14,518 nt of DNA from Thermoplasmata archaeon (GTDB taxonomy: Archaea; Thermoplasmatota; Thermoplasmata; GCA-020350865): the NCBI GenBank assembly GCA_020348445.1, contig CP070751.1, positions 1,271,048 to 1,285,565 of the forward strand, given 5' to 3'. The translations under genes and the position numbers were made by a program. Positions within the stretch are counted from its first letter, which is position 1. The number at the start of each line of letters is the position of its first letter. Below are positions 2-9,702 of this stretch, in pieces. The notes below the pieces were generated by a model. That model made no database searches. It saw only the letters and a program-made list of their open reading frames with translations, and was not told the origin of the DNA.

Positions 2-3000
2 GCATATGCAGGCCCTGATAGAATAAAAAATGTTTACGAGTACATAAATTTCGACGGTTCACTTTCAACCGATTTAGATGGTTCCATTGTGTACTATGAA
101 TGGGATATGGGCAATGGGTTTGTCCTTTATTGGGAGAGCTTCTCTTATGTTTATACAAAAGAAGGATTCTACTATGTGAACTTGACTGTTATGGATGATG
201 ACGGCAGTTATGATAACGACACTGTTCTAGTTGTTATAGGAAATAAAGTGCCAATCGCAAACGCTGGGCCAGATAGAGTAAAGAATGTAAATAAGTCAAT
301 GTATTTTGATGGCATTCTTTCCTATGACATTGATGGGTTTGTAGTAAATTATACCTGGGAACTTGGTGATGGATCTCCTGTAAAATACGGTAGAAACATT
401 ACCCATACCTATTCATCGGAAGGTGTTTATTATGTGAATCTAACGGTTCGGGATGATGATGGGTATTTGAACAACGACACGTGCATAGTGGTTATTGGAA
501 ATAAGGCACCAGTAGCCAATGCGGGGACAGACAGATATGTCCATAAGAACACAACCATTACCCTAAATGGCAGCTTATCTTGTGATATTGATGGCATAAT
601 TTCCACATACGAGTGGAATTTGGGCGATGGAAATTTAACCTCAGGCCTGGAAATCAACCACTCATACCTAAACGATGGTGTATATTATGTCACTCTAAAG
701 GTAACCGATGATGATGGGGCTTTTGATGAGGATATAATAATAGTGGTTGTGGGTAATCGTCCACCAAATGCATATGGCGGTATAGACAGATATGCTCACA
801 AGAACGAGGTAATAACATTTAACGCTAGTCTTTCATTTGATATTGATGGTGCTATTGCTACATATGAATGGGATATGGGCGATGGAACGCAAAAAAGTGG
901 TGAGGAGATAACCCATTCATATTCCAATGACGGTGTGTATTATGTCAACCTGACCGTTACAGATAATGACGGTGTTTCAAATACTGATACAGCTATTGTA
1001 ATCGTGGGCAATCGGGCACCTGAAGCTAATGCTGGTACTGATATATATGCCCATCAGGACTCAACTATAGAATTTAACGCTTCATTTTCCTTTGACATCG
1101 ATGGAACTATTACTAATTATACCTGGGATTTTGGTGATGACAACGAAGGGTACGGAGAAATTGTAAATCATTCATATCCAACGGATGGAGTATACCATGT
1201 AAATCTTACAGTAACTGATAACGACGGGGCCACTGATATAGACATGGTGATCGTGATCGTTGATAATAGGCCGCCTTATGCCTATGCAGGGATTGATAAA
1301 TATGCTCATAGTGGCTCTTCAATATTATTTAACGGAAGCTTATCCTACGATATAGATGGAACAATTAACAATTGGACATGGGAAATGGGAGATGGCAACA
1401 CCAAATATGGCGAAGAAATATATCACTCATATACAAGTAATGGCGTCTATTATGTGAACTTAACCGTATCAGATGATGATAGCTCGACAGATGAGGACAC
1501 AATGATTGTCGTTGTTGGCAATCAAATCCCACATGCAAATGCAGGTTTAGATTACTATTCTCATGTTGGGACATCCGTACATTTTGATGGCAGTCTGTCA
1601 TTAGATGTTGATGGATCGATTACTAATTGGACATGGGATATGGGTGATGGCGTAACTTTACTTTATGGGGAGGAAGTATACCATGCATATGTTACCGAAG
1701 GAGTATATTATGTAAATTTAACTGTCAAAGATAATGACGGCTCCGCAGATTCAGATAGTGCAATCGTTGTCGTGGGTAATAAAGCTCCATATGCATATGC
1801 AGGCCCTGATAAATACGCCCATCCGGATACCTGGATATCGTTTAATGGCTCGCTATCCTACGATTTAGATGGCGAAATTGTGGATTGGTATTGGGACTTC
1901 GGTGATGGGAATTCATCCAATAGCGAAAACGTTTCTTATTTGTTCCCAGGGGAGGGTGTTTATAATGTGACCTTAACGGTAACAGACAACAATGGAACAA
2001 ATGATTCTGACATTTGCGTAGTAATTATAGATTATGATTTTCCATATCCAGATGGGGAGGAATATTCACCTGATAGGGTTCTACAGGTTAATCTAGAAGT
2101 TGAATTTAGTGGTTATGGCCTTCATGACATAGATCAGGAATTTAATTACACCTGGGAGTTTGGTGATGGCGGAACAAGGTATGGTGTCAATGTTACCTAT
2201 TCTTTCAGCAACGACGGAGGGTTTAACGTAACTCTCAATGCAACTTTTGAAAATGGTAGCTTTTATCTGCATTACTATAAAGTTGCGGTGTATAACAAAG
2301 AGCCGAAGGCTATTGCGGGAACAGATAAAATCGGAAAAATAGAGGAGAGGGTTATATTTGATGGATTATATTCCTATGATATTGATGGATTTATTGTGTC
2401 GTATCTGTGGGACTTTGGCGATGGGACTACATCAACAAAACCATTTGCAGTTCACAGATATAGCCAGGATGGTTTGTACAATGTAACACTTACGGTCGAA
2501 GATGATCAGGGCGCTATAGATAAAGACAGATGTGTGGTAATAATTTACAATAGGATTCCAGTAGCAGTTGCTGGAATCGATAAAGGTGCTCATTTAAATG
2601 ATCCTATTCTATTCAGTGGAGGCGCTTCATATGATCTCGATGGTCAAATCATCAATTATACTTGGGATTTAGGAGACGGAAACACAAGATTTGGAGCTGT
2701 TATTACCCACACTTACACCTCAGAAGGACTTTATAATGTGATTCTGACAGTGAAGGACGAGAACGGATTTATAGACAGGGATATCGCGCTTATAGCTGTT
2801 TATAACCGAAATCCCGAAGCTGTCGCAGGCCTGGATAAGGCCTCTCATCCAAACGATTTGATCCTATTTAATGGAATGGCATCATTCGATTGGGATGGTT
2901 GTGTTATAAATTACACTTGGGATTTCGGTGATGGACATGTAGGTTATGGCAGCAATGTGTTCCACAATTACACTGATTATGATCTCTATAAGGTTGTTCT

Positions 3001-5676
3001 GACTGTAAGGGATAACGATGGTTATACTGACAATGATACTTGCTTAGTAGCAATATATAACAGAGAGCCTGTTGCAGCGGCTGGCACAGATCGAATAGGC
3101 CATCCTAATGACCCAATTTTATTTGTTGGTTCCACTTCGTTCGATCTAGATGGTAGTATTATCAATTATACTTGGGACTTTGATGACGGAACGTTAGGAT
3201 ATGGAGCTATCGCTAGCCACAGCTTTGCCTCATCACGAATATACAATGTTGTTCTTACAGTTAAAGATGAAAACGGATTTGTGGACAGGGATATAATCAG
3301 AGTTTCTGTGTACAATAGAAATCCAGTAGCTATTGCAGGTTCAGATAGAATCTCGCATCCTTATGAGGAGGTTTGTTTTGTTGGCACGATATCATATGAT
3401 CTGGATGGAAACATAATAAACTACACGTGGGACTTTGGTGATGGTGATATTGGATACGGCGAATTTGTGTCGCATGTTTACATTGATAGCGGACTATACA
3501 ATGTAACCTTAACTGTAAGGGATGAAGACGGATTCATCGATAATGATACATGCGCTGTCTTTGTTTATAATAGAGAGCCGATTGCGATGGCAGGACTAGA
3601 TAAAATTTCACATCCGAATGAAGTAATAATTTTCGATGGTAAGGCTTCTTTCGATATTGATGGCTATATAGTGAACTACACTTGGGATTTAGATGATGGT
3701 TCAGTCAAATATGGAGAAAATATAGTTCATTCATATTCAACCGATGGAGTCTATAATGTTGTTTTGACTGTAAGAGATGAAGACGGTGCTGAAGATAGAG
3801 ATATTGTCATTGTTGCTGTTTACAATAGAAATCCATGTTCATATGCCGGAATAGACCGCTATTCGCATATAGATGATACAGTGTTATTTGATGGTTCCTG
3901 CTCTGTTGATTTAGATGGTAACATTGTCAGTTATTATTGGGAATTTGGTGATGGAACTACCGGAGAAGGAGTAATGATAAATCATACCTATACTGAAGTG
4001 GGAGTCTATAACGTCAATCTGACAGTCACAGATGAAGATGGTGCTACAGATACTGATGTCTGTATTGTTGCCATCGGAAACAGGGCACCGACATCGATTA
4101 TCATAGGGGAACACTTCACCAATGTAAATGTCACTGTGGAATTCAATGGGACTTTGAGCTTCGATCCTGATGGCGATACAATTTCTTATTACTGGGAGTT
4201 TGGTGATGGAACAACAACTTCTGGTAATTCAATAGTTAATCACTCGTATTCCGAAGTTGGCACATATTATGTAAATTTAACTGTAACTGACGAATATGGA
4301 GTTTCAGATGAAGCCCAATGGATAATTATTGTAGTAAATGCCAAACCTGTAGCGAATGCTGGATGTGATCAGATAGCAGATATCAATGACACCGTTTATT
4401 TCAACGGCTCTCTATCATATGATTTGGATGGTGATCCAATAACGTATTTCTGGGATTTCGGGGATGGATCGACAGGAACCGGGGCAAACCCAACACATTC
4501 GTATTCAAATGCAGGTGTGTATTATGTCATATTGACAGTCACAGATGATAAAGGAGCATTTGATGTCAATATAATGATCGTGGCTGTGAGGAACATGATA
4601 CCTCTGGCTGTGGGATATGCAACTAACCCAGTAATCGATATTGCTGATACAATGAACTTTGTGGGATCATATTCGATTGACTTTGATAATGATACGCTGT
4701 CTTATCACTGGAACTTTGGAGATGGAAATAGCTCAACCGATGCAAATACCACACATACATATGGCCAAAAAGGAACCTTTACTGTAATATTAACAGTCAC
4801 AGATTCCGATGGAGGCACTGATACCGATCAATTCGTAGTTATCGTAAGAAACATCTTACCCAATGCCTGGGCAGGTATCCAAAGGAACGAAGATGTGAAT
4901 ACCACATTCAATTTCATTGGTTCAGTTTCCGATTTGGATGGTGATACAGTTAGCTATACTTGGGACTTTGGTGATGGAACGACATTTTCAAATCAAACGC
5001 CATTGTCTAGTTATAATGCCACTGTTGAAATTGAACATCTTTATTATGTTAAAGGTGCTTATACCGTGAAGTTAACGGCTATAGACGAAGATGGCGCATA
5101 TGCGGAAGACAGCGTCCTAGTTATTATAAAAGATGCGGGACCTTTTGCCGATGCTGGTCCCGACCAGAGTAAAAACACATCAGATGTGGTGGTGTTCGAT
5201 GGTTCAGGCTCTCAAGACGAGTATGGTGTAATAGTATATTACCAATGGAACTTTGGGGATATCTCACCACCTGGTTTCGGAAAAACAGCAACCCACAGCT
5301 ATCATAATAAAGGCGTTAAAGAATATGTTGCTACCTTAACAATAATGGACAACCAGGGCAATACCGCTTCTGATACGACTAACTTGACTATTAGCAACGG
5401 TAAACCTGTAGCAAATGCCGGTTCCGATAAAATAGTCGAGAGGGGCACTTTGGTCAAATTCGATGCTCATCTCTCGGATGATGATGGTGTTATTGTAAGC
5501 TATAGATGGGATTTCGGGGATGGAATGATTGCAATTAGCCCGCAACCCTACTGGTATCATATATACACATCTCTGAGATCTCCCACAACTCCGGTAACTT
5601 ATGTGGTAAATCTTACTGTCACCGACAATGATGGCGAGACAGATAATGATTACATTTATGTCATCGTATTGGCAAA
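2..5676 (+). repeat. Tandem array of 22 PKD (Ig-like) domains, about 85 aa / 255 nt each
   Basis: Counted by hand. Each unit is N-x-x-P-x-A-x-AG-x-D...F-D/N-G-S-x-S-x-D-x-D-G...Y/W-x-W-D/E-F-G-D-G...H-x-Y...G-x-Y-x-V-x-L-T-V-x-D-x-D-G. Unit 9 (about 2042-2299) is degenerate. Confidence 0.93.
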
Positions 5677-9159: not shown

Positions 9160-9162
9160 ATC

Positions 9163-9702
9163 ATGAGAAGAAAATCACCATACATCTACCTTTTTTTAGC
9201 ACTTTCAATAAATTTAATATGGGTTATTTATTTGATATTTTGGCAAGATATTAACTCCTCTAAGCCTTTATTTTGGTCAATGATTATAATTGTAATCATT
9301 TCATGCTATTTACTTTGGCTCTTATTGGATATAAAATATATTAGTAAGCTATTCAAGGAAAAACTTATACGTTTAGGTAGAGAGGATCCATTAAAATTAG
9401 ACAAGTACTTAAAGTCAAAGGAGAAAATAGCGGAACGAAGGAATAAAATACAGAAAATTGAAATGATTACAATTTATGGTTTGTCTATTTGTGTTATTTT
9501 ATTTACATTGAGTATAATCTTTTTATGGATTAATGGAACAACCATAAATTTACAGTTCATAACAACTATTATTGGTTTGATAAGTATCATTGCAGCCCGT
9601 AACTTTTCAATTCATGTTAATGAACCATTGCAATTAGTACAATTAAAAACTATTCGATCAGAGGTTAATAGAATAAATAAAAGATCTAGGAAATATTCTT
9701 AA
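9163..9702 (+). CDS. Basic membrane protein (179 aa, 4 TM as 2+2 around a K/R-rich helix), hypothetical; candidate orphan immunity/partner protein
   Basis: ORF with a strong SD, four hydrophobic segments, central KLFKEKLIRLGREDPLKLDKYLKSKEKIAERRNKIQK and tail RINKRSRKYS. Confidence 0.85.
   Translation: MRRKSPYIYLFLALSINLIWVIYLIFWQDINSSKPLFWSMIIIVIISCYLLWLLLDIKYISKLFKEKLIRLGREDPLKLDKYLKSKEKIAERRNKIQKIEMITIYGLSICVILFTLSIIFLWINGTTINLQFITTIIGLISIIAARNFSIHVNEPLQLVQLKTIRSEVNRINKRSRKYS

Follow-up and report, generated by a model that had tools for sequence, protein, structure and literature searches.

A giant surface-protein gene at positions 2 to 8431 (plus strand) of the window, from an uncultured Thermoplasmatota archaeon, is probably a main (full-length) gene of a system of polymorphic-toxin type that occurs across the Thermoplasmatota, with a C-terminal tail that would be exchangeable and a downstream gene that would encode its cognate partner; we assign this reading a probability of about 0.58. 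The window is the whole stretch of DNA that was analysed, a single complete MAG contig of 14,518 bp with 100-N joins at either side. As far as can be judged from sequence, tail and small gene are swapped together in this family, and joint exchange of this kind characterises contact-dependent toxin/immunity systems, which are barely known in archaea. The first-pass annotation of this DNA had proposed an archaeal analogue of polymorphic toxin/immunity loci, and at the family level this is supported by identity breaks, divergent partners, EndoU, C39-like and caspase-like ends, and a locus with an orphan cassette.

In the proposed mechanism, a Sec-exported stalk consisting of PKD domains and an acidic TSP3-like region would end in a constant module (QFNPF motif, FN3-like domain and the first half of a helix), and an exchangeable C-terminal domain would follow behind an invariant Trp. 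The adjoining small gene downstream would encode the cognate partner of this domain. On contact, the hydrophobic domain would act on the membrane of a neighbour or enter it, serving as pore, ionophore or entry domain, and the partner would neutralise the cognate domain in the membrane of the producer.

Domain organisation of the giant protein

The giant gene comprises 2809 codons plus the stop codon and matches the tail profile of the family with an E value of 1.1e-94. It is truncated at its 5′ end by the contig end; since the window is the whole contig with N joins on both sides, the N-terminus is missing. The statement of the first-pass annotation that the protein is exported consequently rests on homologous giants: 8 of the giants are complete at the 5′ end, and every one of these has a signal-peptide-like N-terminus, versus 3 of 33 short copies. 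A stalk of 22 PKD domains had also been described, and Pfam (PKD_4/PKD) indeed gives 22 stretches at positions 2 to 5668, with E = 0 for PKD_4. These tandem domains, together with the signal peptides of the homologues, place the protein among the PKD-domain archaeal surface proteins. TRF detected no tandem repeat at the DNA level in the PKD array, so the repeats are old.

The stalk continues with an acidic TSP3-like region (positions 5669 to 7453, residues 1890–2484) that is rich in Asp, contains DxDxDG motifs, five of them in the strict form DxDxDGxxD, and matches the TSP3-bearing lipoprotein CglD (NCBIfam NF033765, E 5.6e-11). The Pfam model TSP3_bac, however, stayed below threshold (E 0.16). 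As in the earlier description of Ca-binding repeats, the region probably binds Ca.

A constant module ends at an invariant tryptophan

The conserved junction motif Q[YF]NP[FY]x[KR]ENxPP is located at positions 7454 to 7492 (QYNPYLKENIPTN in the window) and marks the first recombination boundary in relatives. It is followed by an FN3/Ig-like beta-sandwich (positions 7490 to 7822), for which the AF2 model (m4160a1d09412, pLDDT 75.9) superimposes on an FN3 domain with a VIA Z score of 10.1 and an rmsd of 2.6 over 101 residues; Foldseek led to the same assignment. The first part of a 44-residue helix (positions 7823 to 7897) ends the module and runs up to the invariant Trp W2633 (nt 7898–7900). 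This residue corresponds to W149, the sole invariant column of A1, the profile of the constant module. The constant scaffold of the family extends from the motif Q[YF]NP..EN.PP over the FN3 domain into the helix. Within the class, profile A1 matches 40 of 301 genomes; elsewhere in the phylum it matches 9 of 300. Genomes often have multiple copies, also in tandem, and by these matches the scaffold is spread across the Thermoplasmatota. No Pfam or NCBIfam model exists for the scaffold or its junction motifs, nor for the polytopic tails that dominate or for either partner class.

Behind this module we predict a variable C-terminal domain (about positions 7898 to 8428), its position being derived from the break points of relatives. 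It consists of the rest of the helix, a linker, four to five hydrophobic, Gly-rich and K/R-poor helices and an acidic loop. The hydrophobic tip noted earlier is confirmed: the four to five helices lie within the last ~130 residues, which contain one Arg and no Lys, and reach KD values of 2.1–2.8 over 19 aa. About 45 of 65 tails in the family are polytopic, and the window tail belongs to this commonest class. Profile and fold searches gave no match of the tail to a toxin fold or family; fold searches with the C-terminal part of the giant matched the FN3 portion alone.

Break points were determined in four arrays of other genomes (L053–L056) and in two copies of the window's own genome. Paralogues within one array are 93–100% identical up to the helix Trp or the QFNPF motif, and about 10–45% identical thereafter. 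Just before the invariant Trp, identity dropped from 100% to 12% in a pair of L054, from 100% to 38% in L053, from 97% to 45% in L056 and from 93% to 23% in L055. Two further L054 pairs switched directly after the QFNPF motif (97% to 20% and 95% to 20%). The break at the Trp or a few residues before it recurred in all four arrays, and identity breaks in this way between the fragments L042 and L043 of the window's own genome too. At the DNA level, the tracts of the constant part in the arrays are 93–98% identical. The family therefore switches abruptly from a conserved body to a divergent C-terminal domain at a conserved motif. Our initial reading of the tail as a conserved anchor was abandoned, since relatives swap tails behind a constant scaffold. 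The nearest relative of the window gene is about 25–35% identical on both sides of the Trp; because the gene has no close relative, the polymorphism of its own tail is taken from the family, whose rule the window tail would presumably obey.

Small downstream genes diverge together with the tail

A small gene with three hydrophobic segments (3-TM partner, plus strand, positions 8463 to 8798) occupies an immunity-type position behind the giant gene, as the first-pass annotation had noticed for a small membrane gene directly behind the stop codon. Translation may start at ATG 8415, ATG 8463 or TTG 8469, and GGAGGTG is found at 8454–8460. The assignment as partner is based on positional conservation in the family and on the match between tail clade and partner type. 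When a partner was defined as a small ORF with about two N-terminal hydrophobic segments starting between −80 and +60 nt of the stop codon, 22 of 29 members had one, compared to 17 of 1583 control ORFs (1.1%).

Within arrays the partners are mutually 17–25% identical, and two well-supported tail clades pair with two unrelated partner types, so the small downstream gene co-varies with the C-terminal domain in the family. The first-pass annotation had asked whether the last ~200 aa vary among homologues and co-vary with the downstream gene; in the relatives, the abrupt breaks and the divergent small genes answer this in the affirmative. Type-A partners, found in relatives, are modelled by AF2 (pLDDT 83) with one strand ahead of two TM helices and with a PH-like domain that is predicted to be cytoplasmic. 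The top Foldseek matches of this model are PH and related PH-superfold domains, while the Pfam model bPH remained below threshold (E 0.05–0.06). The window partner is of the other type, with three TM segments and no PH domain, and profile comparison revealed no relation to type A. By analogy, 8463–8798 would confer immunity. Since no close relative was found, we infer both this immunity and the toxicity of the window's own tail from the family.

Enzymatic ends and orphan cassettes

Domains of unrelated folds, among them known toxin domains, occupy the C-terminal position on the same scaffold in other family members. EndoU_bacteria was detected with 35.8 bits (Pfam cut-off 25.3), Peptidase_C39_2 with 38.1 and 36.5 bits (cut-off 24) and the caspase-like Peptidase_C14 with 22.9 bits (cut-off 21.4). 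A lipoprotein-like ORF lies behind the C39 end and a soluble ORF behind the EndoU end. In the EndoU locus (L065) the giant gene is followed by this soluble ORF of 195 aa and then by an orphan cassette, which contains a tract of 85% DNA identity and a second EndoU-like end. Orphan cassettes behind a full-length gene thus occur in relatives, as signal-less array copies and as the L065 orphan, and orphans of the family keep the constant module together with a C-terminal domain. The short copies that lack a signal peptide are nevertheless intact ORFs of considerable length, each with a start codon; they may thus be expressed instead of serving as silent cassettes, which counts against the toxin reading. 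In L065 and L079 hydrophobic helices are located between the scaffold and the enzymatic end, a position that fits a role in membrane entry.

A more specific and tentative proposal, which we consider less likely than not, is the following: the polytopic, K/R-poor domain would insert itself into the target membrane, would kill on its own as pore or ionophore, and in the EndoU and caspase members would carry enzymatic cargo across the membrane of a largely wall-less neighbouring archaeon.

Alternative explanations

The toxin reading is weakened by the tail itself, since four to five hydrophobic helices that end a Sec substrate should partition into the membrane of the producer and act as an anchor. 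The tail may accordingly be an ordinary multi-pass membrane anchor of a variable adhesin, with the small partner aiding insertion or stability and the mosaic arising from gene conversion of the ectodomain-proximal part plus relaxed constraint on the TM part. The hydrophobicity of the helices (given above) predicts stop-transfer, the ectodomains are adhesin-like (PKD in the window), and a beta-sandwich followed by a long helix and TM segments resembles the build of S-layer stalk anchors. A second giant of the same genome (6014 aa) has LamG, pentraxin and FG-GAP domains in its ectodomain and K/R-rich tail loops that obey the positive-inside rule; purB lies behind it, and a partner gene is absent. 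Its loops, and purB in the place of a partner, count against the toxin reading as well. Relaxed constraint, however, cannot make identity fall from 100% to 12% across a few residues, and do so at one motif in independent lineages, and it leaves unexplained the in-step divergence of the partners, the EndoU, C39 or caspase ends and the orphan cassettes. We therefore regard an ordinary anchor as unlikely, at about one chance in five.

Somewhat less probable still is a self/non-self identity pair that does not kill, in which tail and partner would form a recognition code governing kin adhesion, membrane exchange or fusion in largely wall-less archaea, comparable to IdsD/IdsE of Proteus and TgrB1/TgrC1 of Dictyostelium. 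The variation resides in membrane-embedded segments of both partners, which co-vary, and the stalk is giant and adhesive. Antagonism is suggested, however, by those members whose scaffold carries an enzymatic end of toxin type (EndoU, peptidases), and we know of no evidence for membrane exchange in these archaea. The same self/non-self alternative has been proposed for the VARTIG module (Makarova et al. 2021, PMC8416519).

A transmembrane receptor, with a stalk sensing a virus or neighbour, a C-terminal region acting inside the producer and a partner restraining it, is very improbable: the enzymatic domains of L065 and L079 would reach the producer cytoplasm if the preceding helices are anchors, and the PH-like domain of type-A partners is predicted on that side, but the window tail has no domain past its helices, orphan cassettes and mosaic recombination would be unexpected, and the EndoU_bacteria domain has been described in toxins that are secreted (Zhang et al. 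2012, PMC3482391).

The polymorphic-toxin-type reading remains the one we prefer. It is to be taken with caution in view of the MAG origin of the contig, and to our knowledge no delivery machinery is known in Thermoplasmatota, which counts against it.

Relation to known systems

Contact-dependent polymorphic toxins are central in bacterial competition, and the CdiA-CT of EC93 is a membrane ionophore that is paired with a small membrane CdiI. Archaea lack an outer membrane. The family described here resembles CdiA/CdiI in having one class that combines a membrane-active domain with a membrane immunity-type protein, and in a short motif that marks the switch to the variable domain (VENN in CdiA; QFNPF or the Trp here). 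A long repetitive stalk, an immunity-type gene directly 3′ and orphan cassettes with a homology tract are also shared (general features: PMC3482391). The stalk, in contrast, is built of PKD and TSP3-like parts and the constant module of an FN3-like domain and a helix, without sequence or domain homology to CdiA, and among the array copies many are long ORFs that have a start codon themselves. Membership in the CdiA family was rejected, as Pfam found PKD-type domains only in the giant, with no TPS domain or FHA repeats, and no CdiB-type gene in the window; the likeness is functional. Membership among Rhs/YD-repeat proteins (RHS/YD repeats, core end PxxxxDPxGL) was rejected for lack of a Pfam RHS match. 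The system is not homologous to CdiA, Rhs or MafB. With polymorphic toxins such as Rhs, MafB and LXG it shares a variety of unrelated domains at the C-terminus, EndoU and peptidases of papain-like or caspase-like type among them, as well as cognate downstream genes and tandem cassettes (PMC3482391). Of 225 archaeal genomes, only about 15 were reported to have classical systems of this kind, and archaea lack most immunity superfamilies (Zhang et al. 2012, PMC3482391).

The VARTIG proteins of Thermococcales are likewise archaeal giants with many Ig-like domains; recombination makes their C-terminal part hypervariable, and the genes downstream vary (PMC8416519); their function was discussed under the same three hypotheses (Makarova et al. 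2021). Their variable part is an Ig domain, whereas here a membrane or enzymatic domain follows a constant FN3 domain and helix. A counterpart of VARTIG outside Thermococcales was not found, and other archaeal PKD loci were described with conserved C-terminal Ig domains (PMC8416519). Four groups of predicted archaeal polymorphic toxin systems, experimentally uncharacterised, are attributed to Makarova et al. (2019, mBio, PMC6509191) as cited in PMC8416519; according to that citation, contact-dependent delivery by large secreted multidomain archaeal proteins is predicted for them too. YdbS/DdE-type proteins of leaderless-bacteriocin loci have two TM helices and a bacterial PH domain (PMC8657885). 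Type-A partners are predicted to share the two TM helices and the PH-like fold with these bacterial proteins, which handle membrane-active peptides; they differ in their sub-threshold bPH matches, and the window partner has three TM segments without PH. The pore-forming colicin domain, whose immunity protein is a membrane protein, is a globular bundle of roughly 10 helices with one buried hydrophobic hairpin; in place of one hairpin, the window tail has four to five hydrophobic helices of TM length.

In archaea, contact-dependent polymorphic toxins are known from predictions only; they are described as rare, and no experiment has yet addressed them (PMC3482391, PMC8416519). Our analysis delimits the modules of a Thermoplasmatota scaffold exactly. 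On this scaffold, membrane domains form the dominant class and canonical toxin domains occur as well; two partner families that had no annotation accompany it. Giant archaeal adhesins that end in an unusual set of several helices can thereby be put to the test as toxin/immunity or identity pairs, and the question how proteins cross or attack archaeal membranes becomes accessible. If the tail does insert itself, archaea would have a contact-dependent inhibition system of their own, and its membrane immunity proteins would fall into two new classes (3-TM; two TM plus PH).

The remainder of the window

Downstream of the partner gene, a 66-codon frame at positions 8959 to 9159 (plus strand) has a signal-peptide-like and LamG-like start and an in-frame TAA at 8989. 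It had been described as the remnant of a second exported-protein gene; the signal-peptide-like and LamG-like frame agrees with this, although it resembles LamG-type N-termini of this genome only weakly (tblastn E 0.02), and a relic is plausible. The second small membrane gene of the earlier description was recovered as an ORF for an orphan protein of 179 aa with four hydrophobic segments (positions 9163 to 9702, plus strand), preceded at 7 nt by GGAGGT and without relation to the type-A partners. Neither for this ORF nor for 8463–8798 were sequence relatives detected in the own genome or in 200 genomes of the class. The 179-aa protein may be a partner left behind when a second giant-type gene was lost. 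Relic and second small gene together differ from the orphan type usual in the family, described above. The gene at positions 10,177 to 14,004 (plus strand) encodes, according to Pfam, a NosD/beta-helix and PKD surface protein with a single TM segment and a KRKK anchor; it is also present in L009 and L005/L040 and is a syntenic neighbour outside the cassette.

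Architecture of the giant gene and of its downstream region

The window is one whole contig (14,518 bp) of a 354-contig MAG with 100-N joins at both sides, and its giant surface-protein ORF (2-8431, forward strand) is open at the 5′ end. The first-pass annotation had described this protein by 22 PKD domains, calcium-binding repeats and a hydrophobic tip. Pfam placed 22 PKD domains within the ORF, an array in which TRF detected no DNA-level tandem repeats, and the hydropathy profile confirmed a strongly hydrophobic helical end with one Arg and no Lys. For the calcium-binding repeats the agreement is partial: residues 1890-2484 form an Asp-rich, TSP3-like region with DxDxDG motifs that matched the TSP3-bearing CglD at 5.6e-11, but the Pfam model TSP3_bac was below threshold. 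The junction motif QYNPYLKENIP begins at nt 7454 (forward strand). The AF2 model of the C-terminal part (pLDDT 75.9) consists of an FN3/Ig-like sandwich, matching an FN3 domain with a VIA Z of 10.1, a 44-residue helix and the helical end. Pfam and NCBIfam found nothing in the tail or in the two small ORFs behind it, and the ESM Atlas gave no usable match.

The motif Q[YF]NP[FY]x[KR]ENxPP (7454-7492 in the window, present in all members) is the best-conserved stretch of the family. It sits in the coil preceding the FN3 domain, is one of two recombination boundaries, and could in addition have a processing or recognition role.

Behind the giant, a small membrane gene was found as described in the first-pass annotation: an ORF with three TM helices ending at 8798 (forward strand; candidate starts at 8415, 8463 and 8469). 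The proposed remnant of a second exported-protein gene joined to a second small membrane gene held for its second half, a 179-aa ORF with four hydrophobic segments (9163-9702, forward strand), while the relic, a frame of 66 codons (8959-9159, forward strand), has a weak likeness to a LamG-type N-terminus (E 0.02). Both small ORFs are preceded by a strong Shine-Dalgarno sequence, and no relatives of either were detectable in the own genome or in 200 genomes of the class. The relic and the 9163-9702 gene differ from the usual orphan type of the family and could represent a deletion that left just the partner of a second gene. Further downstream follow a NosD/beta-helix-PKD protein, anchored in the ordinary way by a single TM (10177-14004, forward strand), and then a TctA fragment (both by Pfam).

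Between 8400 and 10200 the G+C content drops to about 30%, compared to 38-44% in the flanking genes; the two orphan small ORFs and the relic lie in this stretch, as does an AT-rich spacer of 474 nt (9703-10176). T runs past 9702 resemble an archaeal terminator. A scan of the window for sigma-70 promoters and terminators gave nothing informative, the host being an archaeon.

Distribution of the family

A HMMER scan of a representative library with the last 317 residues of the giant returned nine weak relatives of 190-640 aa, and a 'near' search gave four unannotated matches. Proteins of 1544-4916 aa yielded no relatives in a word-based search with the tail, and the profile built from 11 family tails (A1) had no match among longer proteins. 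Against genome contigs the window's tail had no match, and the related protein P0013 matched only its own record, CP070739.1. In a metagenome scan with residues 1890-2809 only TSP3-level relatives (at most 32% identity) appeared, all without tails. Two contigs (L008, L009) and a same-genus genome (L005/L040) share a common layout: TSP3-like repeats, the motif Q[YF]NP..EN.PP, a beta domain, a helix with the pattern W[VI]L..L...L.PII.GI, hydrophobic helices and, directly behind these, a small membrane ORF.

Profile A1 matched in 40 of the 301 class genomes and, elsewhere in the phylum, in 9 of 300. Several matches in one genome are common, often as a tandem, and the frames concerned range from 79 to 8295 aa. 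The tail tree splits into two clades (SH-aLRT 99), one of which pairs with type B partners (three TM helices, as in the window) and the other with type A. As the nearest relative of the window's giant reaches about 25-35% identity at best, the polymorphism of this gene is inferred from the family.

Identity breaks between the constant module and the tail

Whole arrays (L053-L058) were fetched and the paralogues compared inside each array. Here, a family gene and a small membrane gene alternate three to four times. From the TSP3-proximal part through QFNPF and the FN3 domain into the beginning of the helix, paired copies are 93-100% identical; identity then collapses within a few residues: from 100% to 12% in L054, 100% to 38% in L053, 97% to 45% in L056, and 93% to 23% in L055. 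In these four arrays the break lies just ahead of the sole invariant Trp of A1, while in two further L054 pairs it directly follows QFNPF (97% to 20% and 95% to 20%). DNA tracts with 93-98% identity are restricted to the constant part. Two fragments of the own genome (L042/L043) are identical over their first 90 nt; their protein identity stays near 95% as far as the helix, beyond which they are unrelated. In clade I, the clade of the window, sufficiently close pairs follow this trend: identity falls from 51% before the Trp to 28% after it for L009 and L040, and from 72% to 32% for P0009 and P0010.

The partners diverge as well. Those inside arrays are 17-25% identical and those of L042/L043 25%, so that the co-variation of C-terminus and downstream gene, which the toxin/immunity proposal had called for, is seen among array paralogues of the relatives.

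The anchor reading, in which the tail is a conserved membrane anchor with an accessory protein, was our initial main interpretation. It was dropped because array paralogues share the constant part, yet differ in tail and partner. It can point to tail homology throughout the family, to one contiguous alignment of the window with L008a (29% identity) that passes through the junction, and to fold searches with the window's tail, which gave matches of FN3 type only. Hydrophobic helices such as those of the tail would be expected to arrest transfer in the Sec channel of the producer, and a second giant of the own genome (6014 aa) has K/R-rich loops in its tail and no small partner gene behind it, purB lying there instead. 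The collapse from 93-100% to 12-45% identity within arrays, with partners diverging in step, makes this multi-pass anchor, already named as the alternative in the first-pass annotation, unlikely.

Partner genes

Among 29 members with downstream DNA, 22 are followed by an ORF of 90-240 aa that starts -80 to +60 nt from the stop codon and has about two hydrophobic segments at its N-terminus; a neighbour of this kind follows only 17 of 1583 control ORFs of the own genome (1.1%). Most partners are of type A, which AF2 models as a strand, two TM helices and a PH-like domain (pLDDT 83, pTM 0.75), with PH and related PH-superfold domains as top Foldseek matches. This predicted fold resembles the YdbS/DdE architecture known in leaderless-bacteriocin loci (PMC8657885). 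The window's partner is of type B, which has three TM helices but lacks a soluble domain. No relation of type A to type B partners or to the 9163-9702 protein emerged from profile comparison, and the window's partner had no significant BLAST link to other type B partners.

Behind one family copy of the own genome lie two tandem type A paralogues, about 53% identical (L042:1-1170, reverse strand), an arrangement that resembles the tandem immunity genes of bacterial loci. The partner behind a C39-peptidase-type end (L038:535-873, reverse strand; 113 aa) has a lipoprotein-like signal, in which a Cys follows the hydrophobic segment, and a faint protease-prodomain likeness (E 0.039), features that would suit an exported inhibitor.

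Main genes, orphan-like copies and toxin domains

Of the 34 family ORFs whose 5′ end is complete, only 4 have a signal-peptide-like N-terminus. Such an N-terminus is present in all seven further giants (3340-5829 aa) and in the 6014-aa giant, giving totals of 8/8 giants versus 3/33 short copies. This split is that between main gene and orphan cassette; the short copies, whose reading frames are intact, may be expressed. The 6014-aa giant (G000:C1:489832-507876, equal to L041:333-18377) is also matched by A1 and carries the constant module. Its N-terminus is signal-anchor-like, followed by seven PKD domains, LamG, pentraxin, FG-GAP and TSP3 repeats.

Signal-less array copies begin with basic, non-hydrophobic leaders of about 90 aa that are conserved within genus or array (L055, G110:C29; L058, G044:C5; L056, G256:C20; L008:2619-5405) and are 59-65% identical within one genus. 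These leaders may be translated and act in trafficking, or may be no more than homology tracts.

Where the 3′ end is complete (65 members), some 45 tails are polytopic and some 15 soluble. Canonical domains were recognized by Pfam at several ends: EndoU_bacteria in the 3888-aa giant of L065 (35.8 bits, cut-off 25.3), Peptidase_C39_2 in L038 and L081 (38.1 and 36.5 bits, cut-off 24), and Peptidase_C14 (caspase) in L079 (22.9 bits, cut-off 21.4). Behind the EndoU giant of L065 come a soluble ORF of 195 aa and then a frameshifted orphan with a second EndoU-like end, which shares a 164-nt tract (85% identity) with the pre-toxin region of the giant. Judged from its sequence, this locus has the full classical polymorphic-toxin layout. 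In L065 and L079 hydrophobic helices lie between scaffold and enzymatic end, a position that fits an entry function.

A putative polymorphic toxin family

A polymorphic toxin system, as described by Zhang et al. 2012 (PMC3482391), combines a constant scaffold and a conserved junction with exchangeable C-terminal domains, a downstream cognate gene and orphan cassettes; the C-terminal domains have unrelated folds and include canonical toxins. In sequence comparison the Thermoplasmatota family shows these defining features, and its breaks, partners, toxin domains and orphan cassettes support a locus of toxin/immunity type at the family level. The observation made in the first-pass annotation was essentially right, and its interpretation is supported at this level. 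The likeness to CdiA/CdiI and Rhs is one of analogy, not membership, as Pfam found no TPS, FHA or RHS elements in the window. Predicted archaeal systems of this kind lack experimental characterisation, according to Makarova et al. 2021 (PMC8416519).

The window's giant is a full-length family member. The exchangeable domain in it is expected to start at W2633 (nt 7898), near the tip marked in the first-pass annotation. The tail belongs to the commonest class, a polytopic domain with a small membrane partner; it would act on or enter the membrane, and the partner would neutralise it in the membrane of the producer. The toxin reading hinges on what the polytopic tail would do biochemically. A function in recognition (identity) without killing is improbable, somewhat more so than the membrane anchor, and a receptor-effector function is very improbable.

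Further loci of clade I

The NosD/beta-helix-PKD gene is the conserved right-hand neighbour of the clade I cassette in three genomes (10177-14004 in the window, L009:2651-5776 and L040:8462-9706), and is split or shortened in two of them. In CP070739.1, of the same genus, a 350-aa copy (L040:7001-8053) consists of the constant module and tail, has neither signal peptide nor TSP3 repeats, and retains the 3-TM partner and the shortened NosD-type neighbour. This copy thus resembles a decayed form of the locus in the window. In L009, TSP3-like repeats run on in another frame (1-390) ahead of the family ORF (305-2224), so this metagenomic copy is a longer gene that a frameshift, or an error in sequencing, has interrupted.
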